Source: Corynebacterium amycolatum (GTDB lineage: Bacteria > Actinomycetota > Actinomycetes > Mycobacteriales > Mycobacteriaceae). Taken from it: a DNA stretch of 32,000 bases. The stretch's first letter is position 1. Every line of letters begins with the position of its first letter. The notes under the pieces are model-generated. The model searched no databases. It was not told where the DNA came from and was given only the letters and a program-made list of their open reading frames with translations. The stretch lies in the NCBI RefSeq assembly GCF_049243625.1, contig NZ_CP046975.1; one strand, given 5' to 3'. Of the stretch, positions 1,117 through 30,634 are shown in pieces. The translations under genes and the position numbers were made by a program.

Positions 1117-2418
1117 ATGTCGCAGTCGAGGACGACGGGCTTTGACGTCGTAAAGCAAATCGAAGGCGCGCGCGGACGTGCTGGCACCATCCACACCCCG
1201 CATGGCGATATTGCTACGCCGGCGTTCATTCCGGTCGGCACGAAGGCGACCGTGAAGACACTCACGCCCGAGCAGGTGCGATCCACCGGCGCGCAGGCGA
1301 TGCTGTCGAACGCGTACCACCTGTACCTGCAGCCCGGCGAGGAAATCGTCGACCAAGCCGGCGGATTGGCTAAGTTCTCCAACTGGAACGGTCCGACGTT
1401 CACCGACTCCGGTGGATTCCAGGTGCTCAGCCTCGGCGCGGGCTTTAAAAAGACCCTCGCGATGGACGTCACTGGCATGCAGAAAGACGACATCGTCGCC
1501 GAGGGCAAAGAGCGCAACGCGTTCGTCGATGAGGACGGCGTGACTTTCCGCTCGCACATCGATGGCTCCGAGCACCGTTTCACGCCGGAGGTGTCCATGC
1601 GTATTCAGCACGCGCTGGGCGCTGACATCATGATGGCATTTGACGAGCTCACCACGCTCATGAACACCCGCGGCTACCAGGAGGCGTCCGTCGCGCGCAC
1701 GCACCGCTGGGCGCGCCGTTGCCTGGAGGCTCACAACGAGCTGACAGTTTCGCGCGGTCAGGTCGACGGGCACGTCCATTCGCTTGACGACGGCCAGTTG
1801 CCCATCCAGCAGTTATTCGGTGTCGTGCAGGGTGCGCAGTACGAAGACCTGCGCCGCAAGGCCGCCCGCGGGCTGGTCGAGCTCTCCCGCGAGTTCGAGG
1901 ACGCCAGCCAGCTCGGTTTCCACGGCTATGGCATTGGTGGGGCGATTGAGAAGCAGAATCTGGGCCTGATCTGCGGTTGGGTCAATGACGAGCTTCCCGA
2001 CGACCGCGCCCGCCACCTACTGGGAATCTCGGAGCCGGACGATATTTTCGCCGCTGTCGGGGCCGGTGCCGACACCTTTGACTGTGTGGCTCCGACCAGG
2101 CTTGCCCGCCGTGGTGGTGTGTACACGCTCGATGGCCGGATGACCTTGACCAATGCCCGTTTCAAGAACGACTTCCGCCCCGTGGACGCGGAGGTGCCCT
2201 CCTACACGTCGCTGAATTATTCCCGGGCCTACCTGCATCATTTGTTGAAGGCCAAGGAGTATCTGGCCGGCACGCTGTGCACGATTCACAACCTGTTTTT
2301 CATGGTCAAGCTGGTGGAGAACATTCGCGCTGCAATCCTGGAGGACCGGTTCTTCGAGTACCGCGATGAGTTCATGGGCCGCTACTACGCCAATGGCGGC
2401 CGCGCGGTGGGGAATTAG
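1117..2418 (+). CDS. tgt: tRNA-guanine transglycosylase (queuine tRNA-ribosyltransferase)
   Basis: 433-aa ORF. TGT-family sequence throughout (TPAFIPVGTKATVK, NAYHLYLQPG, FTDSGGFQV, MAFDE, LFGVVQG, GYGIGG, LLGISEPDDI, DTFDCVAPTRLAR). Confidence 0.93.
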   Translation: MSQSRTTGFDVVKQIEGARGRAGTIHTPHGDIATPAFIPVGTKATVKTLTPEQVRSTGAQAMLSNAYHLYLQPGEEIVDQAGGLAKFSNWNGPTFTDSGGFQVLSLGAGFKKTLAMDVTGMQKDDIVAEGKERNAFVDEDGVTFRSHIDGSEHRFTPEVSMRIQHALGADIMMAFDELTTLMNTRGYQEASVARTHRWARRCLEAHNELTVSRGQVDGHVHSLDDGQLPIQQLFGVVQGAQYEDLRRKAARGLVELSREFEDASQLGFHGYGIGGAIEKQNLGLICGWVNDELPDDRARHLLGISEPDDIFAAVGAGADTFDCVAPTRLARRGGVYTLDGRMTLTNARFKNDFRPVDAEVPSYTSLNYSRAYLHHLLKAKEYLAGTLCTIHNLFFMVKLVENIRAAILEDRFFEYRDEFMGRYYANGGRAVGN

Positions 2419-2458
2419 CGGCTGAGGACTGGGGTGGGGCTAGACTTCTAGCTTTTCG

Positions 2459-2530
2459 CACTTCACGACAGCCATGTCACCTCGTGCCAGCTGTGGAGGT
2501 GGCATGAGGTGACACCCGTGTCGTGAAGTG
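2459..2530. repeat. Long imperfect inverted repeat (hairpin) downstream of tgt
   Basis: CACTTCACGACA-gccat-GTCACCTC (2459-2483) pairs with GAGGTGAC-acccg-TGTCGTGAAGTG (2506-2530), giving 12+8 bp of complementarity. The outer arms resemble the GCTTGACGACG motif with two mismatches. No U-run follows. Confidence 0.6.
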
Positions 2531-2597
2531 GAACTTGGGCCCGGGGACCTCAAAACTAGACCTAGCTCTACTGCGCGAGGCAGTCTCAACCGGCATC

Positions 2598-3560
2598 ATG
2601 GAGGGCATGATCACGGTTGAACGACTCAGCAAGAAGTACGGCTCGAAATTAGCCGTCGATGACCTGTCCTTCACCGTTCCCGACGGTGTAGTGACAGGTT
2701 TTCTCGGCCCAAACGGCTCCGGCAAGTCCACCACCATGCGCTGCATGCTGGGCCTCGATGCCCCGACCACGGGCCAGGCCTTGTTCACCGGGACGGATTC
2801 ACAGGGCAACACCTACAGCAACCAGCCCTTTTCCACGCTGAAGAATAAGCCCAGCGTCGCGGGCGCAATCCTGGATGCGACGTGGCACAACAAGGCTCGT
2901 TCGGGTCGTGCTCATCTGCGGGCCCTCGCCCGCGGCGCCGGCATCCCCGACACCCGTGTGGAGGAGTGCCTCGAGCAGGTCGGTATGACCGAGGCGGCGA
3001 AGGACAAGGTCGGCGGCTATTCGCTGGGTATGAAGCAGCGTCTGGGAGTGGCGGCGGCTCTGCTCGGCAAGCCGCAGCATCTGATCTTGGATGAGCCGGT
3101 CAACGGCTTGGACCCGGAAGGCGTCTCGTGGATGCGCCACACCATCAAGGCCCTGGCAGCACAGGGCTGCGCTGTTCTCGTGTCGTCGCACCTCCTTTCC
3201 GAGATGCAGCTCACCGCCGACCGCATTGTCGTCATCGGTCGCGGCCGCATGATCGGCGAGTACACCATGGACGAATTCCTCGCCGACGGCACGGTCGTCG
3301 AAGTTGAGGTCGATGATCCGGCTCGGCTGCTGCAGGCGTTGGGGCCGGTGGCGCGTGGGGTTGACGTCGATAAGCAATTGCGCATTCCGCTTTACGACGG
3401 CATCAGCGAGCAGCAACTCCGCCGCGACATTGCGGCTGCTGCCCTGCGTGAGGGGCTGCTGGTGACGCGGTTGAACACGAAGCGCGACAACCTAGAGGAA
3501 AAGTTCCTGGCTGCGACCCAGGAATCGCAGGAGTACCGCGCGCAGGCGATTGGGCAGTAG
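2598..3560 (+). CDS. ABC transporter ATP-binding protein (ABC-2/DrrA-like exporter type)
   Basis: Walker A GPNGSGKST, signature YSLGMKQRL, Walker B LILDEP. I moved the start to ATG 2598 (MEGMITVERLSKKYG) because the track start at 2523 lies inside the upstream hairpin. ATG 2607 is also possible. Confidence 0.88.
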   Translation: MEGMITVERLSKKYGSKLAVDDLSFTVPDGVVTGFLGPNGSGKSTTMRCMLGLDAPTTGQALFTGTDSQGNTYSNQPFSTLKNKPSVAGAILDATWHNKARSGRAHLRALARGAGIPDTRVEECLEQVGMTEAAKDKVGGYSLGMKQRLGVAAALLGKPQHLILDEPVNGLDPEGVSWMRHTIKALAAQGCAVLVSSHLLSEMQLTADRIVVIGRGRMIGEYTMDEFLADGTVVEVEVDDPARLLQALGPVARGVDVDKQLRIPLYDGISEQQLRRDIAAAALREGLLVTRLNTKRDNLEEKFLAATQESQEYRAQAIGQ

Positions 3561-4409: not shown

Positions 4410-4414
4410 CGTCG

Positions 4415-5191
4415 TTAAGCGGGAACGTGAGTGTCGTAGTAGCCTTCGCGGCGCTTGACCCACGCGATGACGGCGTAGGTGATTGGCATGACTACGATTT
4501 CGACCGCGGTCTTCCAAATGAAGCCGACGATGACGTAGTTGATGAAGGTGCCCCAGGTGTCGATGCCGATTGCGGTGGCGGCGATGGAGCAGAAGATGAG
4601 CGTATCGACGAACTCACCAACCACAGTCGAGCCCATCAGGCGCGCCCAGAGCGCCTTTTCGCCAGTGCGCTTCTTAATGGCGTTGAGCGACCAGGCGTTG
4701 AGCAGCTGACCGACGACATAACCGGCCAGACCTGCGAGAACAAGCTGCGGGACGGTGCCCAGCACAGTGGCGAATGCTTCCTGATTTTCATACCACGGTG
4801 CCGCTGGGAGCTTGATGGCGGCAAAGAAGCAGAGCATTGCGCCGGCGAGAATGGCAAACCCGGTCCACACGGTGCGGCGGGTGGCTTTGTAGCCGTAGCA
4901 CTCGGAAAGCACGTCGCCGATGACGTAGCTCAAGGGGAAGAGGAAGAAGGCACCGTCGGTGGCCAGGCCGAAGATTTCCACGCCCTTGGTGGCGGTGATG
5001 TTGGAGACAATCAGCACGCCGATGAAAATAGCCGTGAACATCGGGTACAGCGATTTCGGTACCGGGATGTGGCGTGGCGTGTGTGCTGCGGATTCGGACT
5101 TAGTTGCGTTCTCGGGCGCGTGCGAGGTGCTCACAGCGGCAGCCTCGGCGTTGCCCGGCCCAGACTTGGGCAGGTTTTCGTTATTTGTCAC
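4415..5191 (-). CDS. yhhQ: Queuosine-precursor transporter (YhhQ/VUT, DUF165 family)
   Basis: 258-aa multi-pass membrane protein. The family-typical stretch is FLFPLSYVIGDVLSECYGYKATRRTVW. GTG start. Confidence 0.82.
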   Translation of the reverse strand: MTNNENLPKSGPGNAEAAAVSTSHAPENATKSESAAHTPRHIPVPKSLYPMFTAIFIGVLIVSNITATKGVEIFGLATDGAFFLFPLSYVIGDVLSECYGYKATRRTVWTGFAILAGAMLCFFAAIKLPAAPWYENQEAFATVLGTVPQLVLAGLAGYVVGQLLNAWSLNAIKKRTGEKALWARLMGSTVVGEFVDTLIFCSIAATAIGIDTWGTFINYVIVGFIWKTAVEIVVMPITYAVIAWVKRREGYYDTHVPA

Positions 5192-6020: not shown

Positions 6021-6995
6021 GTGGCCAATTCAAAGCAAGCGATAACCGTCAACAGTTCAAAGCTCCTACCTCCCACCGGCCGCTACGCCCCATCGCCGAC
6101 CGGTCGGCTGCACCTGGGAAACCTGCGCACCGCAGTGTTGGCCTGGGCGCACGCCCGTGCGCAGGGTGGCCGCTTCATCGTGCGTATCGAAGATATCGAC
6201 CGCCAGCGCTCCCGCCCCGAGTATGAGGCGCAGCAGCTCGCCGATCTGGAGGCCATCGGCATCAACTGGGATGGCACCCCGGTCCGCCAGTCAGAACGCT
6301 CTGACCTGTATGAATCCGCGCTCGCCGACCTCACGCAACGCGGCCTGACTTATCCCTGCTTCTGCACGCGCCGCGAAATCCTCGCCGCCTCCTCCGCGCC
6401 CCATGGCGTGCCAGGTCAGTATCCCGGTACGTGCCGTTCGCTTGACGACGAGCACCTCGCCGCGAAAAAAGCCGAATTTGCGGCGGCGGGGAGAAGGCCG
6501 TCGATACGCCTGAAATCGCAGGTGCGTGAGGGGACTGCGACCGATGAGCTGCATGGCGAGATTACCGCCCCGATCGATGACTTTGTCCTTCAGCGTGCCG
6601 ATGACATGTGGGCCTACAACCTTGCGGTCGTCGTCGATGATGCCGAGCAGGGTGTCACTGAAGTCGTGCGTGGTGATGACCTGATGTCCTCGGCTCCGCG
6701 GCAGGCTTACTTGGCTGGTCTTTTGGGGTATGCGGCGCCTTCGTTCGTGCACGTACCACTGGTGGTGAACTCGGAGGGGCGCCGGTTGTCCAAGCGTGAT
6801 GGTGACGTGACTCTCGGCGAGGTACCCGTGGGTGCAGCGCAGCGGTGGATTCTGGATTCGCTCGGTGGCGGTAACGGCAGTGATGGTGGCGATGGTAGCG
6901 ATGGTGGCGCGAGCGCAGAGCTCGACTCCATTGCCGACCTCCCTGAAGCCCTGCGTGCGGGTCTGGAAATTCCTCGCGGACAGGTGATTTTCTAG
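6021..6995 (+). CDS. gluQ: tRNA glutamyl-Q(34) synthetase (GluQRS, truncated GluRS paralogue)
   Basis: Class-I aaRS core: RYAPSPTGRLHLGNLRTAV (HIGH-type), FIVRIEDID, VVDD, LSKRDG (KMSKS-type). At 324 aa it lacks an anticodon-binding domain. The C-terminal region carries a GSDGGDGSDGG repeat. Confidence 0.9.
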   Translation: MANSKQAITVNSSKLLPPTGRYAPSPTGRLHLGNLRTAVLAWAHARAQGGRFIVRIEDIDRQRSRPEYEAQQLADLEAIGINWDGTPVRQSERSDLYESALADLTQRGLTYPCFCTRREILAASSAPHGVPGQYPGTCRSLDDEHLAAKKAEFAAAGRRPSIRLKSQVREGTATDELHGEITAPIDDFVLQRADDMWAYNLAVVVDDAEQGVTEVVRGDDLMSSAPRQAYLAGLLGYAAPSFVHVPLVVNSEGRRLSKRDGDVTLGEVPVGAAQRWILDSLGGGNGSDGGDGSDGGASAELDSIADLPEALRAGLEIPRGQVIF

Positions 6996-7749: not shown

Positions 7750-8202
7750 ATGCCTACTCTTCTTGTCGTCCACCATTCCCCAACCCCGCTCCTGCAGGAA
7801 GTCTTAAGCCACGTGCTCGAGGGCGCCAACGATCCCGCGCTAGAGGGCGTGGATGTCAAGGTCGTCGAGGCTCTCGATGCCACCATCGACGACCTGACCA
7901 GCGCCGACGCCATCCTGCTCGGCACCTCCGCCAACTTCGGCTACATCTCCGGCGCGCTCAAGCACTTCTTTGACACCACCTTCCGGGAGGCTCAGGAAGT
8001 CACCAAGGGTTTGCCATTTTCCTACTGGATCCGCGGTGGCTTCGACACCACCGGCGCGGAAAATGCCATGAAAACCATCACGACCGGCTACAAGTGGGAG
8101 CTTGCGGCCGAACCCGTCGTGTTTGTCGGTTCGCTTGACGACGACATCTCCGACCGCCTAGTAAATCTCGGTGGCACCATGGCTGCCCAAATTTTGGGCT
8201 GA
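7750..8202 (+). CDS. Flavodoxin-like fold protein (NAD(P)H-dependent oxidoreductase family)
   Basis: 150 aa. Flavodoxin-like layout: LLVVHHSPTP, ILLGTSANFGYISGALKHFFD. Confidence 0.75.
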   Translation: MPTLLVVHHSPTPLLQEVLSHVLEGANDPALEGVDVKVVEALDATIDDLTSADAILLGTSANFGYISGALKHFFDTTFREAQEVTKGLPFSYWIRGGFDTTGAENAMKTITTGYKWELAAEPVVFVGSLDDDISDRLVNLGGTMAAQILG

Positions 8203-8240: not shown

Positions 8241-9509
8241 GTGAAAGATTCAGGGGTGCAAGGGGCGCAAGTGACGTCGTCAAGCGAGAAAAACCGCAAG
8301 CCCATGATGAGTCTGCTGGGGCCTGCGTTTGTGGCGGCGATTGCCTACGTGGACCCCGGAAATGTGGCTGCGAACCTGTCTGCGGGCGCGAGCTACGGGT
8401 ATCTGCTGCTGTGGGTGCTGGTGGTGTCCAACCTCATGGCGATGGTTGTGCAGTACCTGTCGGCGAAGTACGGCCTGGTGACGGGGCGGTCGCTGACTGC
8501 AGGTGTTGCCGACCGCTTTGGTTCGAACCGGCCGGGGCGACTGGCGTACTGGGTGCAGGCCGAAATCGTGGCAGCAGCGACGGATGTGGCGGAAATTATT
8601 GGTGGTGCCACCGCGCTGTATCTGCTTTTCGGGACGCCGATGCTGCTCGGTGGTGTCATTGTTGGTGTGGTCTCGCTGGGGCTGTTGCTGCTGCAGGGTG
8701 GGCGTTCGCAACGCACTTTTGAAGGCGTGATTGTGGCGTTCCTGCTGGTCATTACGGTGGGGTTCCTGGCCGGCCTGTTTGTTACGGGCTTGAGCCTCGG
8801 GGAGATGGCCAACGGAATTCTGCCACGCTTCCAAGGCGCGCACACCGTGGTACTGGCGGCGTCCATGCTGGGCGCGACCGTGATGCCGCATGCGGTCTAC
8901 CTGCACTCCGGGCTGGTGCGCGACCGCGAGTACAAGGTGGAAGATGACGCTTCGCTGCGCCAACACCTGCGTGCCACGCGTATCGATGTCTTCGGTGCCC
9001 TCGTGCTGGCCGGGTCGGTGAATATCGGCATGCTGTGTCTTGCGGCCGAAGCGCTTCCGGGAGTGGAGGGGACTGACTCCATCGAAGGTGCCCACGCTGC
9101 CGTGACCAGCGCACTTGGTCCCGTGGTGGGCATACTTTTCGGCGTTGGGCTGCTGGCCTCCGGGCTGGCGTCGTCCTCTGTCGGCTGCTACGCCGGCGAC
9201 CTGATTATGCGTGACCTGTTGAAAGTACACGTGCCGATGCTGGTGCGCCGCATAGTCACCATCATTCCGGCGCTGCTCATTATCGCCAGCGGTGCGGAGC
9301 CGACCTGGGCGCTGGTGCTCAGTCAGGTGGTGCTGTCGATTGGTATCCCGTTTGCGCTGGTCCCGCTGGTGTACATGACCTCCTCGCGTGCCGAGATGGG
9401 CATCTGGGCCAACACCCCACTACTGCGCCGGGTCGCGTGGGTTATCTGCGGACTCATCATCGCGCTCAACGTGGCGCTGGTGGTCCTGGTGCTGATGGGG
9501 AAGGGGTAG
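8241..9509 (+). CDS. mntH: Nramp-family divalent metal (Mn2+/Fe2+) transporter
   Basis: Nramp signatures AYVDPGN and GATVMPHAVYLHS, with about 11 hydrophobic segments. The start is uncertain: GTG 8241 or ATG 8304. Confidence 0.9.
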   Translation: MKDSGVQGAQVTSSSEKNRKPMMSLLGPAFVAAIAYVDPGNVAANLSAGASYGYLLLWVLVVSNLMAMVVQYLSAKYGLVTGRSLTAGVADRFGSNRPGRLAYWVQAEIVAAATDVAEIIGGATALYLLFGTPMLLGGVIVGVVSLGLLLLQGGRSQRTFEGVIVAFLLVITVGFLAGLFVTGLSLGEMANGILPRFQGAHTVVLAASMLGATVMPHAVYLHSGLVRDREYKVEDDASLRQHLRATRIDVFGALVLAGSVNIGMLCLAAEALPGVEGTDSIEGAHAAVTSALGPVVGILFGVGLLASGLASSSVGCYAGDLIMRDLLKVHVPMLVRRIVTIIPALLIIASGAEPTWALVLSQVVLSIGIPFALVPLVYMTSSRAEMGIWANTPLLRRVAWVICGLIIALNVALVVLVLMGKG

Positions 9510-9755
9510 TCAGCGGGCGAGGTGGAAGGTAGTAGCTTCCGGGAGGGGGAGGTGGGGGCTTCGTCGTAAAGCGTGCGGGAGATGGTAGACAAAGCTGTCT
9601 AGTTGGTGTTAGGGTGGGCGACACGATCACAAGATATCGACGAGAAATGGCCTTTGACAGCGTCGATAGGCAACCGCCCGATTCGCGGACCCGGTGCCCC
9701 AAAGGAAGATCAGCCCCACAGACCGCCTGCGGGGAAGAGCGAATAGGAGCGCCAA

Positions 9756-10109
9756 ATGCACACCACAATCAGCGACGTCCACATCATCCACCTCAGCCGT
9801 CACACCGCTGACCTCCTCGTCGACGGTCGACCCGTCGCCATCCGGCTGCAAGAAGCCGACATCGACCCCCACTCCCGGAATCTCGTCCAACTCCCCGTCG
9901 ACCCCGCCTTCTACGCCACCCTCCGCGGCCAACAACGCGCCGACTACCTCAGCGCCCACGTCCGCGACGGCGTACGCTACGGTCGCATCCTCTGGCATGA
10001 GCTTGACGACGGCCGCCACTTCCTCACCATCCCCACCGTCGGTGGCTACCACGTGCACCAGGTCTTTGAAGTCCGCCGCAGCCGTGAGGGAGTGTGGAGT
10101 CGGCACTGA
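9756..10109 (+). CDS. Hypothetical protein
   Basis: 117-aa ORF with an AGGAG RBS 7-8 nt before the ATG. Protein-like composition, no recognised family. It contains one copy of each over-represented motif. Confidence 0.6.
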   Translation: MHTTISDVHIIHLSRHTADLLVDGRPVAIRLQEADIDPHSRNLVQLPVDPAFYATLRGQQRADYLSAHVRDGVRYGRILWHELDDGRHFLTIPTVGGYHVHQVFEVRRSREGVWSRH

Positions 10110-11824: not shown

Positions 11825-11867
11825 CGTCGTCAAGCCCGTTTGTGCAGATTGTGCATGCTTTACGACG
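11825..11867. repeat. Inverted pair of the GCTTGACGACG motif forming a hairpin downstream of amn
   Basis: CGTCGTCAAGC (11825-11835) and GCTTTACGACG (11857-11867) form an 11-bp stem with one mismatch and a 21-nt loop. The stem begins 17 nt after the amn stop. Confidence 0.65.
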
Positions 11868-17526: not shown

Positions 17527-17548
17527 GACGAGAAGTAAAAGGCCCACC

Positions 17549-18200: not shown

Positions 18201-18234
18201 GACAACCGCAACCACACAGATACGGAGAACCATC

Positions 18235-18375
18235 GTGATCAATATCAAGAAAATCGCAACCAGCGCCGGATACAACACAACTACCGGCACCGATCTCAAA
18301 GCAGAACCGGACACAATCAACCTGCAAGCCCTCAGCGACGATCTACGCGCATACGAGGATCTAACCGGCGAATAG
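18235..18375 (+). CDS. Small hypothetical protein (46 aa), or the N-terminal part of a longer gene interrupted by TAG
   Basis: GTG 18235 has GGAG 8 nt upstream. The upstream part of track ORF 18106-18375 overlaps xis out of frame. The gene ends at TAG 18373-18375, in the same frame as the next open stretch. Confidence 0.4.
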   Translation: MINIKKIATSAGYNTTTGTDLKAEPDTINLQALSDDLRAYEDLTGE

Positions 18376-19523: not shown

Positions 19524-19553
19524 TAAGCCCTTTTGAAAAATATCTACATGTCA

Positions 19554-19640
19554 CTGAGATTAGAGATTGGGGTTATTTATACGCTTTGACCTGCTTTAAT
19601 ATGTCTCAATTCCGTATTGAGATTGGCTGAGATTGGGGGG
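19554..19640 (+). repeat. Four GAGATT(GG) repeats plus a TCTCAAT/ATTGAGA inverted repeat immediately upstream of the primase gene
   Basis: GAGATT at 19556, 19563, 19619 and 19629. The inverted repeat is 19604-19610 with 19616-19622. Confidence 0.75.
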
Positions 19641-19645
19641 TTGAA

Positions 19646-21175: not shown

Positions 21176-21273
21176 GGGTTTATCTCAGCAATCTTAGCGA
21201 ATCTCAACCACTGAATACGCTGCATTATTGCAGTTCAGAGACGGTATCTAGGGGCTTATCTTCCAATCTCAGT
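21173..21273. repeat. Reverse-orientation copies of the GAGATTGG repeat and a ~22-bp direct repeat just 3' of the primase gene (candidate replication origin)
   Basis: CCAATCTCAG (21263-21272) is the exact reverse complement of CTGAGATTGG (19627-19636). AATCTC occurs at 21200 and 21265. TAGGGGYTTATCT..CAATCT occurs at 21173 and 21249, flanking the palindrome CTGCATTATTGCAG. Confidence 0.55.
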
Positions 21274-21663
21274 GTTTTGCAAAATTCTCCACTGAAAAAC
21301 ACGACAACACCAGCCGGGGATAAGTCCTAACCCGTCCAACATTGATGAAACTGTCACGTGCCCAACTCGTTCCCGGGCGCACGCGCGCGCGGTATATAGT
21401 CCAGAAACAAAAGAGCGCTGTGGCTCGTTTTAAGCGCTTGGGGGCTACTTAGGTATGTGCGCTTATCGTTCAACGCTTTAGAAGTGATTTGTGAACAGGG
21501 GTTTTGCAGAGTTTTGGGCGGGGCACACCGTCTATCGCCTAGCGAGACGCTAGAGCCTACGCGCACCGGGCTAAACCACGGCAGGGGCGGGGTATAGGTG
21601 CACCGCGCGACAATTTCCCCTACGCCCCGGTATCAGCCCGGCGCGCCGGGCGGGTCTAGTGGG

Positions 21664-21888
21664 TTACTCAGCGTCCATGTGTTCCCGCATGGCTCGATTG
21701 AATACGTCGGCAATATCGGCGCCCGCGTTTCGGTCAATGCTGAGTATCTGGTCTGTGATGATCTCTAGGTGAGTATCGGTGATTGGTTCGCCCTCACCGG
21801 GACTTGGTACGCCTGGGAACATTGCGGCCATGAGAAGGCTGGATAGCCCCTCATAGATCCGTTCTGTGAGTGTTGGCTGAGTGTCCAT
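21664..21888 (-). CDS. Small acidic hypothetical protein (74 aa)
   Basis: The start is set at ATG 21888 (MDTQPTL...) with AAGGA upstream. The longer track ORF (to 21939) would overlap the CTGTCACG repeats. Confidence 0.5.
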   Translation of the reverse strand: MDTQPTLTERIYEGLSSLLMAAMFPGVPSPGEGEPITDTHLEIITDQILSIDRNAGADIADVFNRAMREHMDAE

Positions 21889-21916
21889 AGTTGGGTTGGT
21901 TTCCTTTGGCTTTAGG

Positions 21917-21955
21917 CTGTCACGGACTGAGACTGTCACGAAAAGCTGTCACGCG
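21917..21955 (+). repeat. Three CTGTCACG octamers near attR, including the 23-bp block 21933-21955
   Basis: CTGTCACG at 21917, 21933 and 21946, with one further copy at 21351. All are on the + strand. Confidence 0.8.
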
Positions 21956-22011
21956 ACATGGTAAGCGGGTGAATAAGTGCCCCTCACCAGCGGAGGAGCG
22001 AAAAAGTGGCG

Positions 22012-22030
22012 AAATCCCACATCCTCCGCA
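22012..22030 (+). repeat. attR core (duplicate of the tRNA-Ser 3' end)
   Basis: Exact 19-bp copy of 16197-16215. Confidence 0.9.
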
Positions 22031-23581: not shown

Positions 23582-24499
23582 ATGTCTGATAAATCTACGA
23601 AAACTAAGTCTGCGCTTTCCGACGGGCGCCGCGCCGAGCGTCGCCTCGGTCTGCTGTTGGTGGCTCCTGCGCTGATTTTGATGCTGGCGGTGACGGCGTA
23701 CCCCATTGGGTACGCGATTTGGCTGTCGCTGCAGCGCTATGACCTGCGTTTCCCCGATGACCGCGAGTTTATCGGCCTGCAGAACTACGCATCCGTGTTG
23801 ACCAGCAGTTATTGGTGGGAAGCGCTGGGCGTGACGGCGTTTATCACGCTGGTTTCGGTGGCGGTTGAACTGGTGCTTGGCATGGCTATCGCGATGGTGA
23901 TGTACCGCGCGATTTTCGGCCGCGGCCTGATCCGCACGGTGGTGTTGATTCCGTACGGCATCGTCACGGTGGCGGCGGCGTACTCGTGGAATTACGCGTG
24001 GACGCCGGGGACGGGGTATCTCGCTAATTTGCTTCCCGACGGCACCGCGCCGCTGACGGAGCAATGGCCGTCGATATTTATCATTATCGGCGCTGAAATT
24101 TGGAAGACGACTCCATTCATGGCGCTGCTGCTTCTTGCGGGTCTGGCGCTGGTGCCTGACGACGCGCTGAAGGCGGCCGAGTTGGATGGTGCGGGTTTCT
24201 GGCAGCGCTTTTTCAGGATCACGTTGCCGCTGATGAAGCCATCGATTGTGGTGGCTCTGCTGTTCCGCACTCTGGATGCTTTCCGAGTGTTCGACAACAT
24301 CTACATTCTGACCAAGGGCAATAATGGCACTGGTTCGGTGTCGATTCTGGGTTACAACAACCTGTTTAAGGCGTTCAACCTGGGTATTGGTTCAGCAATT
24401 TCGGTGTTGATCTTCGTGTGCGTGGCGCTGATTGCAATTGTGTTCGTCAAGGGCTTCGGGGCCTCGTCGCCAGGCGCGGCCACGGGCAAGAATAATTAG
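23582..24499 (+). CDS. Carbohydrate ABC transporter permease (SugA-like)
   Basis: 305 aa with six hydrophobic segments in a MalF/BPD-type permease layout. The ATG directly follows the SBP stop. Confidence 0.88.
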   Translation: MSDKSTKTKSALSDGRRAERRLGLLLVAPALILMLAVTAYPIGYAIWLSLQRYDLRFPDDREFIGLQNYASVLTSSYWWEALGVTAFITLVSVAVELVLGMAIAMVMYRAIFGRGLIRTVVLIPYGIVTVAAAYSWNYAWTPGTGYLANLLPDGTAPLTEQWPSIFIIIGAEIWKTTPFMALLLLAGLALVPDDALKAAELDGAGFWQRFFRITLPLMKPSIVVALLFRTLDAFRVFDNIYILTKGNNGTGSVSILGYNNLFKAFNLGIGSAISVLIFVCVALIAIVFVKGFGASSPGAATGKNN

Positions 24500-25369: not shown

Positions 25370-26527
25370 ATGGCTGAAATTGAACTAAAGCACGTGTACA
25401 AGCGCTTTCCTGATGGTCACATCGGTGTGGAAGACGCGAATCTCAAAATCGACGACGGCGAGTTCATCATCCTCGTCGGCCCCTCCGGTTGCGGTAAGTC
25501 GACGATGCTGAACATGATTGCAGGGCTGGAGGACATCTCCGAAGGTGACCTGCTCATCGACGGCGAGCGCATGAACGATGTCGCTCCGAAGGACCGTGAT
25601 ATCGCCATGGTGTTTCAGTCCTACGCGCTGTACCCGCACATGAACGTCCGCGAGAACATCGCTTTCCCGCTCAAGCTGGCAAAACTGCCGAAGAAGGAGA
25701 TCGAGAAGAAGGTCAACGAGGCCGCCGAAATTCTCGATCTGACGGAGTTCCTCGACCGCAAGCCCGCGCATCTCTCGGGTGGTCAGCGTCAGCGCGTGGC
25801 GATGGGCCGCGCCATCGTCCGCCGACCGAAGGTCTTCCTCATGGACGAGCCGCTCTCAAACCTGGACGCCAAGCTCCGCGTCCAGATGCGCACCGAAATT
25901 GCCCAGCTGCAGGAACGCCTCAGCACCACCACTGTCTACGTCACCCACGATCAAACTGAGGCCATGACGTTGGGCGACCGCGTCGTCGTGCTGAAAAAGG
26001 GCGTTATCCAGCAAATTGGCGCTCCGCAAGAGCTCTACCACCGACCGGTCAACGTCTTCGTCGCCGGCTTCATCGGCTCGCCCGCCATGAACTTCCTGCC
26101 TGCCACTGTGCTTGACGACGGCCACAGCGTCGACACCGCCCTGGGCCACCTGCCACTCCCGGAAAAATTTGCCCCGGGCCGGAAGGCTATCGTCGGCTTA
26201 CGACCAGAGGCTTTCGAAGACGCCGCCCTGACCGACGACAATTGCGATGCACCAACGGTCGAGGTCGAGGTGTCCGTCCTGGAGGCGATGGGCTCCGAGC
26301 AGTTCATCCACTTCCCACTCCCGGAAATTGATTTGAAGGGTCATGCCGCAGCTGAGGAGGCTGGCCTGGCGGATAACCCGCATGCCATGTTGGTGGCTCG
26401 AGTCGATGCGGAGTCGAATGTGCGTCGAGGTCAGAAGATTACGTTGGCCATCAACACGGACAAGTTGAATGTCTTTGATTCTGAGTCAGGTGAGAACTTG
26501 GCGTTGAAGGCTAAGAACCAAGACTAA
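25370..26527 (+). CDS. Sugar ABC transporter ATP-binding protein (SugC/MsiK/MalK-like)
   Basis: Walker A GPSGCGKST, LSGGQRQRV, Walker B FLMDEPLS, H-loop VTHD, MalK-type C-terminal regulatory domain. Confidence 0.92.
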   Translation: MAEIELKHVYKRFPDGHIGVEDANLKIDDGEFIILVGPSGCGKSTMLNMIAGLEDISEGDLLIDGERMNDVAPKDRDIAMVFQSYALYPHMNVRENIAFPLKLAKLPKKEIEKKVNEAAEILDLTEFLDRKPAHLSGGQRQRVAMGRAIVRRPKVFLMDEPLSNLDAKLRVQMRTEIAQLQERLSTTTVYVTHDQTEAMTLGDRVVVLKKGVIQQIGAPQELYHRPVNVFVAGFIGSPAMNFLPATVLDDGHSVDTALGHLPLPEKFAPGRKAIVGLRPEAFEDAALTDDNCDAPTVEVEVSVLEAMGSEQFIHFPLPEIDLKGHAAAEEAGLADNPHAMLVARVDAESNVRRGQKITLAINTDKLNVFDSESGENLALKAKNQD

Positions 26528-26905: not shown

Positions 26906-28477
26906 ATGAGCGATGCCAACGACATGCGAGTGCCACCGCAGGCAACACGAGAACCGCTAGAAACTCCAGAACCACAACAGCCACAGGCCCGAGAAGTCCC
27001 AGCGCCAATGGGCGTGTGGGATTCCTTCCGGTTCGCAGTTTCTTCACCGAAGCGCCTGCGCACCGAGCTGCTGGCTGGCGCAGCGGTGTCGTTCGCGCTG
27101 ATCCCCGAGGTCATTTCGTTTTCCATCTTGGCGGGCGTGGACCCGGCGGTGGGGCTGTTTAGCTCGGTGATTATGGCCATCGTGATTGCCTTCACGGGTG
27201 GTCGCCCGGCCATGATTACCGCTGCCGCTGGTTCGGTTGCGCTCGTCGTCGCGCCGTTGTCGCGGACGTACGGGATGGATTACCTCATCCCGACGGTGTT
27301 GCTCGCGGGCGTGTTGCAGATTGCTTTTGCGGCGTTGGGGATCGCTAAGCTGCAGCGTTTCATTCCGCGTGCGGTCATGATTGGCTTTGTCAACGCGCTG
27401 GGCATCCTCATTTTCACCGCGCAGCTGGAGCATCTCATCGATGTGCCGTGGCTGGTGTATCCGCTGGTCGCTCTGGGTATTGCAATTATGGTGTTCCTGC
27501 CCCGCGTGTTCACCGCGATTCCGGCTCCGCTGGTAACTGTGCTCGTCGTCACGCTTGTTGCGGTGTTGGCGGATTGGCGCGTGCCGAACGTGAGCGATAT
27601 GGGTGAGCTCCCGGAATCTCTCCCGCAGCTGCTGATTCCGAATGTGCCCCTGACCTGGGAGACTCTGCAGCTGATTGCGCCGTATGCGGTGGGCGTGGCG
27701 ATTGTCGGCATCATGGAATCGCTGATGACGGCGAAGCTCGTGGACGACATCACCGACACGCATTCGGACAAGACCCGTGAGACGTGGGGACTCGGTGTCG
27801 CGAATATCGCGGGCGGTTTCTTCGGCGGTATCGCTGGCTGCGCGATGATTGGTCAGACGATGGTGGGTGTGAAGGAATCGTCGGGACGCACTCGCTTGAC
27901 GACGCTCTTTTCCGGCGTCTTCCTGCTCATTCTGGTCCTTCTGCTCAGTTCCGCAGTCGGTGCGATTCCGATGGCGGCGCTGGTTGCGGTGATGGTCGTG
28001 GTGTCGGTGGACACGGTCGATTGGCGCTCGATTTCCCCGCGGACATTGCGCCTGATGCCGCGTTCGGAGACGGTGGTGATGCTGGTGACGGTCATCGCCA
28101 CGCTGGCGACGGATAACCTCGCCATCGGCGTAGTTTCGGGTGTGGTCGTGGCGTCGCTGATGTTCGCGCGCCGTGTCGCTCACCTGGTCAGGATCGAAGT
28201 GCTTGACGACGACCCCAGCGCCCACTCCCGGACGTACAAGGTGCGGGGTCAGCTGTTCTTCGCCTCCAGTAACGACCTGGTGTACCAGTTCGACTACACC
28301 GACCCTGCGCAGCGCATTGTGATCGACATGTCGGAGGCCGAAATTTGGGATGCTTCCACGGTGGCGGCATTGGATTCGGTGCGGGTCAAGTTTGCTGACC
28401 GGGGCAAAGAGGTGGAAATTATCGGCTTGGAGGGGCCGAGTAAGCAGCGTCTGGATGCTCTGTCGGGGAAGTTGTAG
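26906..28477 (+). CDS. SulP-family inorganic anion transporter with a C-terminal STAS domain
   Basis: SulP N-terminal pattern (LLAGAAVSFALIPEVISFSILAGVDP), many TM segments, and a STAS-like tail (YKVRGQLFFASSNDLV...). The start is set at ATG 26906. The track start at 26864 lies in the repeat nest. Confidence 0.87.
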   Translation: MSDANDMRVPPQATREPLETPEPQQPQAREVPAPMGVWDSFRFAVSSPKRLRTELLAGAAVSFALIPEVISFSILAGVDPAVGLFSSVIMAIVIAFTGGRPAMITAAAGSVALVVAPLSRTYGMDYLIPTVLLAGVLQIAFAALGIAKLQRFIPRAVMIGFVNALGILIFTAQLEHLIDVPWLVYPLVALGIAIMVFLPRVFTAIPAPLVTVLVVTLVAVLADWRVPNVSDMGELPESLPQLLIPNVPLTWETLQLIAPYAVGVAIVGIMESLMTAKLVDDITDTHSDKTRETWGLGVANIAGGFFGGIAGCAMIGQTMVGVKESSGRTRLTTLFSGVFLLILVLLLSSAVGAIPMAALVAVMVVVSVDTVDWRSISPRTLRLMPRSETVVMLVTVIATLATDNLAIGVVSGVVVASLMFARRVAHLVRIEVLDDDPSAHSRTYKVRGQLFFASSNDLVYQFDYTDPAQRIVIDMSEAEIWDASTVAALDSVRVKFADRGKEVEIIGLEGPSKQRLDALSGKL

Positions 28478-28572
28478 AAATCCCAATCCGGAGTATGCCT
28501 TACACTTAGTTGCAAAGCCAGATGCGGCGCGGGGAAAAGGTTTTCCGTGCCAGGTTTGTCAGGTTTTAACTT

Positions 28573-29874
28573 ATGTCCGATACCTGGGAGGGTGCGTACA
28601 CCATGGCCGTGGATTCCTTTGATGTTCAGCAGTTGGCGGCACACAAGGATGAGTTTGCGAAGGCATATGAGGAACTGAAGTCCCGTAACCTCGCACTGAA
28701 TTTGACTCGCGGTAAGCCGTCGTCGGAGCAGCTTGATTTCGCGAATGCCCTGCTGGGTCTCCCGGCGCCGGATTACATTTCGGTTTCTGGGGAGGACGTC
28801 CGCAATTACGGCAACGCCAAGGGTATTACTGATATCCGCGCTATCTGGGCGGAACTGATGGATCTGCCGGTGGAAAACGTCCTGGCACAGGATGCTTCCA
28901 GCCTGAACATCGAGTTTGACCTGATTTCGTGGGCCATGCAGTTCGGCAACGTCGACTCGGAACGCCCGTGGAACGAGGAGCCGGTGCTTAAGTGGCTGTG
29001 CCCGGTTCCGGGGTATGACCGTCACTTTTCCATTACGCAGCACTTCGGCATTGAGATGATCCAGGTGCCGCTGAACGAAGACGGTCCGGATATGGATGTC
29101 GTGGAGAAGCTGGTTGCCTCTGACCCGCAGATTAAGGGCATGTGGAATGTCCCGATGTTCTCGAACCCGACGGGCGTGACCTACAGCGCTGAGGTCTGCC
29201 GTCGTCTGGTTGAAATGGAAACCGCTGCTCCGGATTTCCGTCTGATGTGGGATAACGCCTACATGGTTCACACGCTGACGGATGAGTTCCCGGAGATTCA
29301 CAACGTCATTAAGTGGGCGGAAGAGGCGGGCAATCCGAACCGCGTGTGGGCATTCGGCTCGACCTCGAAGATCACCTTCGCTGGTGCCGGCGTTGCTTTC
29401 TACGCTTCTTCGGATGCCAACTTGGAGGATTACCTCAAGCACGCTGGTATCCGCGGCATTGGCCCGAACAAGGTCAACCAGCTGGCTCACGCCAAGTTCT
29501 TCGGTGACGCGGAGGGTGTGCGCGAGCAGATGCGCCGTCATGCCGGGTCGCTGGCTCCGAAGTTTGAGAAGGTTCTGCAGATTCTGGATGAGCGCCTGAC
29601 GGAGTACGGCGTGGCAGAGTGGTCGAAGCCGACCGGCGGTTACTTCATCAACCTCGACGTGGTTGATGGCACCGCTCGTCGCGTGGTGGAGCTGGCTAAG
29701 GAGGCCGGTATTGCGCTAACCGGTTCTGGTTCTTCCTTCCCGCTGAAGCAGGATCCGAATGACCGCAACATCCGTCTGGCACCGTCGCTGCCTCCGATGG
29801 AGGAGCTCGAGGTCGCTATGAACGGCGTCGCTACCTGTGTGCTGCTCGCCGCCGCCGAGAAGGCGACTGCCTAG
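28573..29874 (+). CDS. PLP-dependent aminotransferase (class I fold; AspT-like aspartate aminotransferase of corynebacteria)
   Basis: 433 aa. The N-terminal LNLTRGKPSSEQLDF and the SKITFAGAGVAF lysine region fit this subgroup. Its position upstream of dnaX matches my recollection of corynebacterial synteny. The substrate is inferred. Confidence 0.8.
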   Translation: MSDTWEGAYTMAVDSFDVQQLAAHKDEFAKAYEELKSRNLALNLTRGKPSSEQLDFANALLGLPAPDYISVSGEDVRNYGNAKGITDIRAIWAELMDLPVENVLAQDASSLNIEFDLISWAMQFGNVDSERPWNEEPVLKWLCPVPGYDRHFSITQHFGIEMIQVPLNEDGPDMDVVEKLVASDPQIKGMWNVPMFSNPTGVTYSAEVCRRLVEMETAAPDFRLMWDNAYMVHTLTDEFPEIHNVIKWAEEAGNPNRVWAFGSTSKITFAGAGVAFYASSDANLEDYLKHAGIRGIGPNKVNQLAHAKFFGDAEGVREQMRRHAGSLAPKFEKVLQILDERLTEYGVAEWSKPTGGYFINLDVVDGTARRVVELAKEAGIALTGSGSSFPLKQDPNDRNIRLAPSLPPMEELEVAMNGVATCVLLAAAEKATA

Positions 29875-29908
29875 GCCAAGCAAGCCAGGTAGGTCGGGAT
29901 AGGACTGT

Positions 29909-30634
29909 ATGAACTTCGAAGAGACGAAGTTTTGGGTCTCCGGGCTTTTCCCCGGAGACCCCCAGGTCGGCGAGTATGTGACGGAGCTGCCGGCCAGTGG
30001 TCGGCACGGGCAGGAACACGATTCGGCACCGCTTCGGGTCGCTGAGTTCTCGCTTTACGACGAGCCGGAGTGCCAAGCGAACGAGCGTCGTCCGGAAACG
30101 GCAGCCGCCACGGTGGAGTTGGGTCGCAACTACTGTGGCCTGACCGGCGCAGCGGAGACCGATATCCGTGTGGAACTTTTCGCCGTCGCCTACGCGGACT
30201 TTCCCGTGGCCACCATGGTCGCGGCCGCGGGAGCGCTGGTGGAGGAAGAGCCGGAGTTTCTCTCGCCAATTCCGGGCCGTGTCATCCCGAATGCGGTGCG
30301 GCTGGTGTCCGATCGGGTTGCCGAGGTAGGGGAGTCGTCGTCAAGCACTGCCTTTACCGTGGTGCACGTGCTGTGCACGGTACCGTACGTGTGGAGCGAC
30401 GGGGTGCCGAATGTGTCCGAGATGCCGGGCAAAATCAGCCTGCATGAGGGCGATGTGGAGTCCCCGCAGGGGCGCATGACCACGATGACGCAGCTGGTGC
30501 CGATCACGGATGCGGAGCTGGAGTTTTATGAGCAGCAGGGTCCGCAGGCGCTGATGCAGAAGTTGGCCGAAGTGGATGCTGACCTGCGGGATTGGTGCCG
30601 TGAGTCGGTTGTTTCCCAGGAGGGTTCGAACTAG
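29909..30634 (+). CDS. Hypothetical conserved-looking protein (241 aa)
   Basis: Long ORF with protein-like acidic composition. I cannot place the family confidently. Confidence 0.6.
   Translation: MNFEETKFWVSGLFPGDPQVGEYVTELPASGRHGQEHDSAPLRVAEFSLYDEPECQANERRPETAAATVELGRNYCGLTGAAETDIRVELFAVAYADFPVATMVAAAGALVEEEPEFLSPIPGRVIPNAVRLVSDRVAEVGESSSSTAFTVVHVLCTVPYVWSDGVPNVSEMPGKISLHEGDVESPQGRMTTMTQLVPITDAELEFYEQQGPQALMQKLAEVDADLRDWCRESVVSQEGSN

Follow-up and report, generated by a model that had tools for sequence, protein, structure and literature searches.

The 11-base word GCTTGACGACG, repeated in the 32,000-nt stretch of Corynebacterium amycolatum DNA analysed here as a whole (the window), is the C. 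amycolatum and C. lactis dialect, GCTT-[G>T]A-CGACG, of a Corynebacterium-wide bipartite motif, GCTT-N2-CGACG, which has nine fixed bases and a strict 2-nt spacer and occurs about once per kb in many Corynebacterium genomes. The motif is read at the level of double-stranded DNA and not as codons, and we put the probability that it is maintained by drive or selection at roughly 0.9. Its mechanism may be biased DNA uptake or recombination, with the motif as an uptake-signal-like self-recognition tag, a reading by analogy to which we give somewhat less than even odds. No prior report of GCTTGACGACG or GCTT-NN-CGACG in Corynebacterium was found in the literature searched.

The exact word and the genus-wide motif

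The window contains 12 exact copies of GCTTGACGACG on both strands against an expectation of 0.02, as determined from 100 dinucleotide shuffles of the window with a maximum of 1 copy per shuffle, an enrichment of about 600-fold. A preliminary description had located all 12 copies correctly except for the first, which starts at 1782 and not at 1783. Base-5 variants add seven copies, five with T (3389+, 11857+, 30052+, 9562- and 1146-), one with A (4410-) and one with C (15960-); the earlier list of one-mismatch copies was right for six of these and overlooked the T variant at 1146. Because the remaining single-base variants occur only 0-2 times each in the window, at or near background, base 5 is the sole free base, with base 6 free more weakly. 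The copies have unconserved flanks, the word is non-palindromic, and the genes hosting it encode unrelated proteins.

Occurrences of the family motif, GCTT-N2-CGACG, number 29 in the window against 0.60 expected, and 20 against 0.37 and 21 against 0.28 in the relatives L089 and L090. Across 370 kb from 19 Corynebacterium loci it occurs 160 times, compared with 0-28 copies when one fixed base is changed and 2-16 copies when the spacer is 0, 1, 3, 4 or 5. The 1139 kb examined from other Actinobacteria, among them Mycobacterium, Rhodococcus, Nocardia and Gordonia, held 31 occurrences, no more than neighbouring words and so at background, and the motif is missing from five Corynebacterium loci (L007, L008, L015, L019 and L023). 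The favoured centre bases drift from lineage to lineage: GA (12 copies) and TA (5) in the window, most commonly GA in C. lactis, TC, CC or GC in L089, TG in C. sp. H78, AA or GC in L091, and xT in L087, C. lehmanniae, L011 and L020. Statistics for the C. amycolatum genome rest on 48.8 kb, with about 20 kb for each relative. The same genome carries at least one other hyperabundant word, the unrelated CACTCCCGGAA, at a similar density, and other Corynebacterium loci have additional abundant words of their own. The sites in the window are as follows.

257..267, plus strand: family site GCTTTTCGACG in an MMPL gene, L-F-D
1146..1156, minus strand: T variant GCTTTACGACG, antisense in tgt, FDVVKQI
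1782..1792, plus strand: exact word in tgt, S-L-D-D-G, variable loop
1992..2002, plus strand: family site GCTTCCCGACG in tgt, E-L-P-D-D, conserved protein motif
3365..3375, minus strand: family site GCTTATCGACG, antisense in an ABC ATPase gene, V-D-K
3389..3399, plus strand: T variant in the ABC ATPase gene, P-L-Y-D-G
4410..4420, minus strand: A variant GCTTAACGACG, its TAA the stop of Vut_1/yhhQ (4415-5191, minus)
6440..6450, plus strand: exact word in gluQ, S-L-D-D-E
8133..8143, plus strand: exact word in an FMN_red-like gene, S-L-D-D-D
8275..8285, minus strand: exact word, either ahead of mntH or within its opening codons, according to which start is taken
9562..9572, minus strand: T variant, intergenic, downstream of mntH
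10001..10011, plus strand: exact word in hypothetical gene 9756-10109, E-L-D-D-G
10745..10755, minus strand: family site GCTTGCCGACG, antisense in amn, S-A-S
11142..11152, plus strand: family site GCTTCGCGACG in amn, L-R-D
11825..11835, minus strand: exact word in the intergenic DNA that follows amn, forming an imperfect inverted pair as its left arm, with the other arm at 11857
11857..11867, plus strand: T variant, intergenic, pairing with 11825 as the right arm
12555..12565, plus strand: exact word in an HNH-motif gene, P-L-D-D-V
12564..12574, minus strand: family site GCTTATCGACG, V-D-K, overlapping the 12555 site by 2 nt
14584..14594, plus strand: family site GCTTAGCGACG in a P-type ATPase gene
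15617..15627, plus strand: exact word in csoR, S-L-D-D-G, variable N-terminus
15960..15970, minus strand: C variant GCTTCACGACG, intergenic after csoR, within a hairpin
16215..22030, no strand: integrated 5.8-kb island in tRNA-Ser(GGA) with integrase, HTH_17 and D5_N primase
23614..23624, plus strand: family site GCTTTCCGACG in an ABC permease gene, L-S-D
24031..24041, plus strand: family site GCTTCCCGACG in an ABC permease gene, L-P-D
26110..26120, plus strand: exact word in a MalK-like ATPase gene, V-L-D-D-G
27894..27904, plus strand: exact word in SulP, R-L-T-T (the other open sense frame)
28201..28211, plus strand: exact word in SulP, V-L-D-D-D
30052..30062, plus strand: T variant in a SUFU-like gene, S-L-Y-D-E
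30336..30346, minus strand: exact word, antisense in the SUFU-like gene, S-S-S
31840..31850, plus strand: family site GCTTGCCGACG in dnaX, L-A-D

The density of family sites is equal in native coding DNA (37 in about 36 kb) and non-coding DNA (8 in about 6.5 kb), and the motif occurs in both orientations and several frames. The ratio of sense to antisense copies is 13:3 for the exact word and, for the family motif, 27:10 in C. amycolatum and 35:26 in the relatives. None of GCTTGACGACG, the family motif and word 1 (ACTCCCGGAAA) occurs in the island, for which the native density would predict about 6 family sites. Among the nine forward intragenic exact copies, eight are read G-CTT-GAC-GAC-G (L-D-D) and one, in SulP, R-L-T-T, while two T variants are read L-Y-D; these frames agree with the preliminary description, as does the coincidence of the TAA at 4410 with the Vut_1/yhhQ stop codon. 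Its observation that the frame creating TGA is never used is true as well, but this is a necessity in coding DNA rather than a finding. The 8275 copy, described as lying in the 5' part of mntH, is inside the gene with the longest start (8241) or with start 8271, and is intergenic with the 401-aa start at 8304 called in some assemblies.

Codon usage and the origin of the sites

CTT is a rare Leu codon (9%), and yet all eight L-D-D tripeptides in the native window genes use it. Shuffling of synonymous codons gave 0.2 copies of GCTTGACGACG in the window against 10 observed and, over the extended 48.8 kb, 0.35 against 16 for the exact word and 1.8 against 37 for the family motif. Extreme codon bias, which had been raised as a way in which the word could be generated, is therefore refuted. 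L-D-D itself occurs 16 times against 4.0 expected, a fourfold excess; 12 of the 16 are encoded by GCTTGACGACG and the remaining four use other codons, and the entire excess is attributable to the word. The tripeptide V-V-K showed no enrichment. The earlier conclusion that protein homology does not explain the word is upheld, the word being a DNA-level feature for which the shuffles and tripeptide counts also rule out codon bias.

Comparison of orthologues points to how the sites arise. The tgt loop holding the 1782 copy is variable and absent from most Corynebacterium orthologues; its position reads GCTTGGCGACG (LGD) in L087, an 88% relative, and LQP, VEA or LGA, without the motif, in 80% relatives, so that L-D-D is lineage-specific and not ancestral, in keeping with the interpretation in the preliminary description. 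In gluQ, C. lactis has GCTTTCCGACG (LSD) at the 6440 position; L089 and L096 lack the motif there and read RNLSEEE. The 8133 position in the FMN_red-like gene has the same exact word in C. lactis, ACTTGACGACG in L090 and no motif in L089, L091 and L096. Relatives read HTLADGR or HRTRDGR at 10001, and C. lactis and L096 read GPVDAVD at 12555, all without the motif, and the position aligned with csoR 15617 holds word 1 in C. lactis instead. In SulP, the 27894 position reads GCTTGTCGACG (RLST) in L090 and GCTTCTCGACG (RFST) in C. lactis, and the exact word at 28201 is shared with C. lactis and absent in L090. The SUFU-like gene of C. lactis has GCTTTTCGACG (LFD) at the 30052 position and lacks the 30336 copy. 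Examples are the change of NLSEE or LLSDD into SLDDE (gluQ), of PVDAV into PLDDV (HNH gene) and of RLST or RFST into RLTT (SulP). New copies thus arise through amino-acid-changing point substitutions at tolerant positions or in variable loops, mostly as L-x-D in the sense frame.

Copies already present are maintained. All nine sites are unchanged in a relative of 95% identity, where the 99 columns show no difference although 4.4 would be expected (P = 0.012). The motif is also found at the position of the MMPL site (AVLFDAF) in L087, L089, L090, L091 and L094; the tgt 1146 site is kept in L087, L089, L090 and L091 with CT, GA, TA and TA as the respective centre bases; the ABC ATPase site at 3389 is GCTTCCCGACG (LPD) in L087; the amn 10745 site is conserved in L089, L095 and L096; and the 12564 site is conserved in L095 and L096.

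The preliminary description had also likened the copies to in-frame insertions such as Rickettsia palindromic elements. Those elements, like REP elements and MITEs, are repeats able to sit in frame within genes, but they are palindromic insertions of 20-150 bp with conserved sequence, unlike an 11-nt, non-palindromic word made by substitution between unrelated flanks. This likeness is rejected because codon alignments of orthologues show same-length substitutions and no insertions at the sites.

A proposed uptake-signal-like tag and its alternatives

Saturation at this level would seem to need molecular drive and not site-by-site selection; the word, which uses a rare Leu codon, accounts for all excess L-D-D. 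The sole established drive with such a pattern would be preferential uptake and recombination of species-tagged DNA, as with USS in Pasteurellaceae and DUS in Neisseriaceae, and it is on this match that we tentatively read the motif as an uptake-signal-like tag. A putative reader would contact GCTT and CGACG and, in this lineage, would also prefer K-A between them. USS and DUS are likewise words of 9-12 nt that occur about once per kb on both strands, mostly within genes, and published uptake sequences raise the frequency of the encoded tripeptide, favour one orientation and frame, prefer poorly conserved residues, which they reach by point mutation, and are absent from genes without homologues and from recently acquired genes (PMC2817400, PMC2346458). 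The resemblance suggested in the preliminary description extends to each of these features, and the island lacking the motif in tRNA-Ser, as recently integrated DNA, would fit a self-tag. Dialects with a conserved core and lineage-specific positions are a further likeness (PMC3630211).

Several observations count against uptake. The host is a Gram-positive actinobacterium, and neither natural transformation or competence nor uptake specificity was found reported for Corynebacterium in the literature searched. The motif, unlike USS and DUS, is bipartite with a 2-nt centre that is free or dialect-bearing, and it coexists with CACTCCCGGAA, where known USS and DUS species have one word. Its favoured frame uses the rare CTT, whereas frame choice in Haemophilus and Neisseria correlates with preferred codons (PMC2817400, PMC2346458). 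Coding tolerance may not fully account for the 13:3 sense bias together with the unenriched V-V-K. The terminator-forming inverted pairs common among DUS are not a feature of this genome's sites, the fold of the 11825/11857 pair being no better than shuffles (z = -0.56), and the five Corynebacterium loci without the motif also stand against this reading.

The motif could alternatively comprise sites at which a chromosome-associated protein (a nucleoid-associated protein, a segregation factor or actinobacterial topoisomerase I) binds or cleaves the DNA, under weak per-site selection, which we regard as unlikely. A bipartite motif that is orientation-neutral at the DNA level, evenly spread over coding and non-coding DNA, conserved at sites between relatives and common to the genus in its core would fit such a protein. 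About 1,000 individually selected sites, however, would be unlikely to override amino acids and saturate every accessible L-D-D, and the Mycobacterium and Rhodococcus loci show no enrichment. For topoisomerase I in particular, the mycobacterial strong site is C(G/T)CT↓T(C/G), with at least 20 nt needed and a bipartite binding mode described (PMC6379724); the GCTT core is shared, and 7 of the 12 exact copies read CGCTTG. But the preceding base, a required C, is unfixed (C 15, T 9, A 3 and G 2 among 29 sites), base 5 in the relatives is not limited to C or G, and the CGACG half has no counterpart.

Rather improbable is that the word results incidentally from repair or gene conversion biased towards a specific sequence, as proposed for very-short-patch repair and HIP1, in which an enzyme would write it into resident DNA. 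The conversion of near-matches into sites by point substitution, the strong over-representation of one position as variable and the absence of the word from a recently arrived island are consistent with this, and several unrelated abundant words are easier to obtain from several enzymes than from several uptake receptors. HIP1 (GCGATCGC) in cyanobacteria, the function of which is debated, is similarly a hyperabundant short coding-region word, clade-wide and conserved at orthologous positions. It is, however, an 8-bp palindrome recognised by methyltransferases, and known repair systems act on 4-8 bp, usually palindromic and methylated, whereas GCTTGACGACG is non-palindromic with 9-11 specified bases and no known methylation. 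No linked methyltransferase or Vsr-like gene is present in the loci seen, and the literature searched yielded no methylome motif for Corynebacterium.

A sense-strand signal in the transcript, such as a site where RNA polymerase pauses or an element of the mRNA, is very unlikely. It would suit the sense bias of the exact word and the family, and G1...C10-G11 of GCTTGACGACG would fit the elemental pause consensus, G-10 Y-1 G+1. Against it are 36 antisense and 13 intergenic family copies, the latter mostly antisense to flanking genes, a non-coding density equal to that in coding DNA, and nine fixed bases, far beyond what a pause requires.

We consider a polar signal for recombination or chromosome segregation, like Chi or KOPS/AIMS, highly improbable. 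Such words are also unusually frequent in the core genome and scarce in foreign DNA, here the island, and 9 of the 12 exact copies in the window lie on the strand with positive GC skew. They are 5-8 nt long, modestly enriched and replication-oriented, while GCTTGACGACG is much longer and far more enriched. The orientation of the motif tracks gene strand and not replication, with minus-strand L-D-D copies in the minus-strand genes PDH, GATase_3 and RNase_T, which argues against a replication-oriented signal, and strands are near balance in the relatives (9:11, 10:11 and 8:8).

Finally, chance, codon bias, a protein motif in common or traces of small mobile elements, to which the predominance of one frame read as L-D-D might have pointed, can be practically discounted: they are refuted by the synonymous shuffles, the rare Leu codon, the unrelated host proteins, the unconserved flanks, the equal-length substitutions in place of insertions, and the intergenic copies.

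Abundance of word 2 and its peptides

The 32-kb window holds 12 exact copies of the 11-mer GCTTGACGACG (word 2), of which 9 are forward and 3 reverse; dinucleotide shuffles predict 0.02. The preliminary list of copies was right overall, except that the first exact copy starts at 1782 rather than 1783 and that a T variant at 1146 had been overlooked. Among the 33 single-base neighbours of the word (for example GCTAGACGACG), only changes at base 5 stand out, all others having 0-2 copies each. The flanks of the 12 exact copies are unrelated, save for a tendency to (T)C ahead of the word. As read from the sequence, word 2 is not a palindrome and in this differs from the HIP1 type. The host genes of the exact copies encode TGT, a class I tRNA synthetase, FMN_red, Nramp, AMP nucleosidase, an HNH-motif protein, CsoR, an ABC ATPase and SulP, and since these belong to unrelated Pfam families, protein homology is ruled out as the cause, as had been claimed beforehand.

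Base-5 variants of word 2 in the window
1146, minus strand, T variant
3389, plus strand, T variant
9562, minus strand, T variant
11857, plus strand, T variant
30052, plus strand, T variant
4410, minus strand, A variant (the only one), its TAA being the stop codon of Vut_1/yhhQ
15960, minus strand, C variant (the only one)

The window is 100% identical to BAAIFS010000001.1, and the stretch was extended on that basis to 48,758 nt (48.8 kb). Its proteins are also found on the 2.47-Mb chromosomes CP120206.1 (C. amycolatum SB-1), CP008913.1 (Corynebacterium sp. ATCC 6931) and BAAIFS010000001.1. The statistics rest on these 48.8 kb of the source genome and on about 20 kb per relative. The 48.8 kb contain 45 sites of the wider bipartite family GCTT-NN-CGACG, of which 18 are exact copies of word 2 (12 read as L-D-D, 1 as L-T-T, 3 antisense and 2 intergenic).

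In native window genes, CTT makes up 9% of leucine codons and GAC 58% of aspartate codons, and all 8 L-D-D tripeptides read G-CTT-GAC-GAC-G. Synonymous-codon shuffling of the genes in the 48.8 kb gave 0.35 exact copies against the 16 present and 1.8 family sites against 37, which, together with the codon counts, rules out the codon bias or chance that the preliminary description had allowed might generate the word. L-D-D was observed 16 times in the 48.8 kb, compared to 4.0 expected from amino-acid frequencies; word 2 encodes 12 of these, and the remaining 4, which use other codons, equal the background expectation. The DNA word put L-D-D into the proteome and not the reverse, and about three quarters of the L-D-D here is owed to a DNA word and not to protein function.

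A bipartite motif in the genus

Relatives were fetched via homologues of Tgt (88%, 80%, 79% and 80% identity) and of the HNH-motif protein (including C. lactis). Exact word 2 is rare in these relatives, and many words of the types GCTTTCCGACG, GCTTCCCGACG, GCTTGCCGACG, GCTTTGCGACG and GCTTAACGACG are found instead. GCTT-NN-CGACG occurs 160 times in the 370 kb that 19 Corynebacterium loci provide together, while replacing any of the nine fixed bases leaves 0-28 copies and setting the spacer to 0, 1, 3, 4 or 5 leaves 2-16 copies in the same 370 kb. In 1139 kb of other Actinobacteria (Mycobacterium, Mycolicibacterium, Rhodococcus, Nocardia, Gordonia, Tsukamurella, propionibacteria and others), the motif was counted 31 times, which does not exceed the counts of its neighbour words. 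Family density ranges from 0.26 to 1.1 per kb across 14 Corynebacterium loci, including C. lactis, C. sp. H78, C. lehmanniae, C. aurimucosum, C. lubricantis and C. parakroppenstedtii, and is about 0 in five others (L007, L008, L015, L019 and L023). The GCTT..CGACG core is fixed in the 14 loci and NN depends on lineage, as in the dialects of the uptake sequences of Pasteurellaceae (USS) and Neisseriaceae (DUS). Word 2 is a dialect of a genus-wide Corynebacterium bipartite motif. Both word 2 and the family motif also share with USS and DUS a length of 9-12 nt, an excess of hundreds-fold, a density of about 1 per kb and presence on both strands.

Family motif counts (observed, shuffle-expected) and preferred NN; L numbers denote loci of relatives
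C. amycolatum: 29 against 0.60 in the window; GA 12, TA 5
C. lactis: GA commonest (5/23)
L089: 20 against 0.37; TC 5, CC 5, GC 4
C. sp. H78 (L090): 21 against 0.28; TG 6
L091: AA 4, GC 4
L087, C. lehmanniae, L011, L020: mostly xT

Orthologues were aligned at the codon level, and only equal-length substitutions, with no insertions, were seen.

Orthologous residues at word 2 sites
Tgt: HSLDDGQ in C. amycolatum; AALGDGQ (GCTTGGCGACG) in the 88% relative; unrelated sequence, motif absent, in 80% relatives
gluQ: SLDDE in C. amycolatum; LLSDD (GCTTTCCGACG) in C. lactis; NLSEE, motif absent, further out
SulP: RLTT in C. amycolatum; RLST (GCTTGTCGACG) and RFST (GCTTCTCGACG) in relatives
HNH gene: PLDDV in C. 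amycolatum; PVDAV in relatives
CsoR, variable N-terminus: word 2 in C. amycolatum; the unrelated word 1 (ACTCCCGGAAA) at the aligned position in C. lactis

In Tgt, the site falls within a loop missing from most Corynebacterium orthologues, and two exact sites (FMN_red and SulP) are common to C. amycolatum and C. lactis. The alignments of Tgt, gluQ and CsoR called for earlier show L-D-D substituted in relatives, with the Tgt loop and the CsoR N-terminus variable; as with USS and DUS, tripeptides are raised and poorly conserved residues are used. The equal-length orthologues and unrelated flanks rule out a mobile-element footprint or in-frame insertion, and the likening to Rickettsia palindromic elements made earlier is withdrawn. 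In a relative of 95% nucleotide identity (L094), 9/9 family sites that fall in the shared 7.7 kb are preserved; their 99 motif columns show 0 differences, where 4.4 would be expected (P = 0.012).

The window also carries an island.

16128-22047, island of 5.8 kb in the 3′ end of tRNA-Ser(GGA)
16197-16215 and 22012-22030, att repeats

A repeat of the tRNA 3′ end borders the island, which encodes a tyrosine integrase, HTH_17 and a D5_N/DUF5906 primase and looks satellite- or PICI-like. Its GC content is 0.52-0.55, compared to about 0.60 in the surrounding DNA; CP120206 and BAAIFS01 carry it, and CP008913 and KV787181 do not. No family site was found in its 5.8 kb against about 6 expected, which, on one island only, is consistent with the depletion of USS and DUS in recently acquired DNA.

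Orientation and pairing of sites

The 45 family sites of the 48.8 kb comprise 27 sense, 10 antisense and 8 intergenic ones, at about 1 per kb in coding and non-coding DNA alike, and 24 of the 27 sense sites are read in the L-x-D frame. Because the minus-strand genes PDH, GATase_3 and RNase_T bear minus-strand L-D-D copies, site orientation tracks gene strand and not replication direction within the 48.8 kb, which is one replichore segment. Four relatives gave 35 sense (27 L-x-D), 26 antisense (13 V-x-K) and 5 intergenic sites, with balanced strand totals (9:11, 10:11 and 8:8). A Chi- or KOPS-like polar word, following replication, is contradicted by this gene-strand orientation within the 48.8 kb and by the balance in relatives.

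No preferred arrangement of site pairs was apparent among 20 loci. The sole inverted pair (11825/11857, imperfect) folded no better than shuffles (z = -0.56), and with zero family sites in terminator-like hits as well, terminator pairs, frequent and inverted in Neisseria, were rejected for the family motif. A dimeric palindromic full site was likewise rejected, the overlapping arrangement GCTTGACGACGTCGATAAGC being found once only. This 20-nt near-palindrome, at 12555-12574 in the HNH-motif gene, is formed by two family sites overlapping head to head. The HNH-motif gene shares the peptide L-D-D-V-D with recR and GATase_3.

A sigma-70 -35 box (TTGACG) was dismissed, as it has no -10 partner and the promoter scan was at shuffle level, and also because the centre bases vary in relatives, destroying TTGAC. 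NAC (the variable codon) and GAC are Q-decoded codons, and tgt adjoins; a role in queuosine-dependent translation was dropped, since density is no lower for intergenic and antisense copies than for coding ones, and since relatives have C, T or G at base 6.

At both V-V-K sites (one at 1146-1156, the other outside the window, 6926 nt upstream), the rare codon GTA gives the T variant of word 2, where the common codon GTC would yield the exact word. The tgt V-V-K site (1146) has the same T-variant state in the 95% relative, and the other lies outside the region shared with L094; therefore, either the T variant is kept in its own right or G is preferred mainly in the sense L-D-D frame. At 30341-31828 (minus strand), a 495-aa ORF is spurious, running antisense over dnaX (plus-strand start 30665); the reverse word at 30336 would give it its TGA stop, and the real gene is SUFU-like on the plus strand.

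Further abundant words and candidate mechanisms

Word 1, CACTCCCGGAA, is unrelated to word 2 and stands at similar density in the same window, at variance with the one dominant word per genome of USS and DUS. In the form (CCC)CACTCCCGGAA(TTT), it has 27 copies of the core CTCCCGGA at 5278-28232, in both orientations and all frames (plus strand, e.g. 9872, 11012, 11087 and 26156; minus strand, e.g. 14946 and 15055), with clusters at 8-16 kb and 22.5-28.2 kb; the first 5 kb and the island are both free of it. It is abundant in C. lactis too (28 cores in 21 kb), takes the dialect form CACTCCCGGAC in L096, is weak in L089 and is absent from L087, L090 and L091. Other Corynebacterium species have words of their own, and several species-specific hyperabundant words per genome look like a property of the genus.

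Abundant words in relatives (about 21 kb each)
L023: AGGACGCC, 21 copies; CTCGTCGA, 20
L008: GGACGCCAAC, 11-13
C. aurimucosum (L010): GATACCACG, 9-10; ACTGAGAC, 10
L016: CGGGCAAC, 11; CCCGAAAG, 8
C. lehmanniae (L018): AGATCACC, 11

For word 2, mobile-element footprints are ruled out, as are codon bias, homology and chance, and we put the probability that it is a DNA-level motif under drive at about 0.9. The family motif, with nine fixed bases and a fixed spacer, works at the level of double-stranded DNA, and its core is conserved while its centre drifts between lineages. Copies are created by mutation at tolerant positions and then maintained, and newly arrived DNA comes without the motif. Molecular drive, rather than selection per site, would saturate the genome with the motif, and is favoured because all excess L-D-D uses a rare codon.

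Given that saturation argues for drive and that the motif behaves as uptake sequences do, an uptake-signal-like self-recognition tag is our best explanation. In coding regions, uptake sequences raise tripeptides, prefer poorly conserved residues and one orientation and frame, and are absent from genes without homologues (PMC2817400, PMC2346458); their dialects are described in PMC3630211. The family motif agrees with them on tripeptides, tolerant residues, orientation and frame, dialects and absence from acquired DNA. Searches of the open-access literature found no report of natural competence in Corynebacterium and nothing relevant on words 1 and 2, uptake sequences or hyperabundant words in this genus, on uptake sequences or competence in Actinobacteria, or on Corynebacterium methylome motifs. 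The uptake mechanism itself is more doubtful than drive and appreciably below even odds, because of this silence on competence, because word 1 coexists at similar density and further words occur in other species, because the favoured frame uses a non-preferred codon, and because the exact word is sense-biased 13:3, with V-V-K showing no gain.

Biased repair or conversion, as proposed for HIP1, would cope better with several words per genome, but no precedent exists for its acting on a motif of 9-11 nt that is not palindromic. A wider reading, to which we give only slightly less than an even chance, is that Corynebacterium chromosomes are written on by an undescribed sequence-specific drive that places several lineage-specific 9-11-nt words (the GCTT-N2-CGACG family, CACTCCCGGAA and others in other species), overrides amino acids at tolerant positions and differs in specificity from species to species. 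This drive would be either sequence-selective uptake that uses at least two signals side by side, in a genus not known to be competent, or a biased repair or conversion system that is guided by protein and has nothing to do with uptake. A selected array of protein-binding sites might include those of topoisomerase I, whose mycobacterial strong site is C(G/T)CTT(C/G) (PMC6379724). This is matched by 7 of the 12 exact copies, but the required upstream C is not fixed, being present at 15/29 family sites; base 5 is C or G at 18/29. A transcript-level signal is a further rival.

To our knowledge, hyperabundant species-tag words have so far been associated with USS and DUS, in two Gram-negative families, and with HIP1 in cyanobacteria. 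A genus-wide motif with dialects in Corynebacterium would point to unrecognised sequence-selective DNA exchange or to a new proteome-shaping drive. Among the members of the genus are C. diphtheriae, skin commensals, opportunists and the industrial C. glutamicum. The motif would make gene flow and species barriers within it open to testing and provide a simple sequence marker for native versus recently acquired DNA, and adding the tag could possibly improve transformation of recalcitrant strains.

In L091 (14422-16500), an Eco47II-type restriction enzyme and a cytosine methyltransferase lie between the FMN_red-like gene and amn, where C. amycolatum has neither. Right after the csoR stop (15930-15985), an inverted word-1 pair (CTCCCGGAAAAATTCCGGGAG) forms a perfect 10-bp hairpin and the next hairpin holds the C variant of word 2; together they fold at -34.8 kcal/mol (z = -5.8) and are probably the operon terminator. 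In six cases (9545-9572, 11822-11835, 11857-11912, 15950-15970, 26110-26163 and 28201-28232), word 1 comes within 13-48 nt after a word-2 family site and points the same way, and it is never found within 50 nt upstream of a family site. This tandem, in a small sample of six, may represent a composite signal or shared 'landing pads'.
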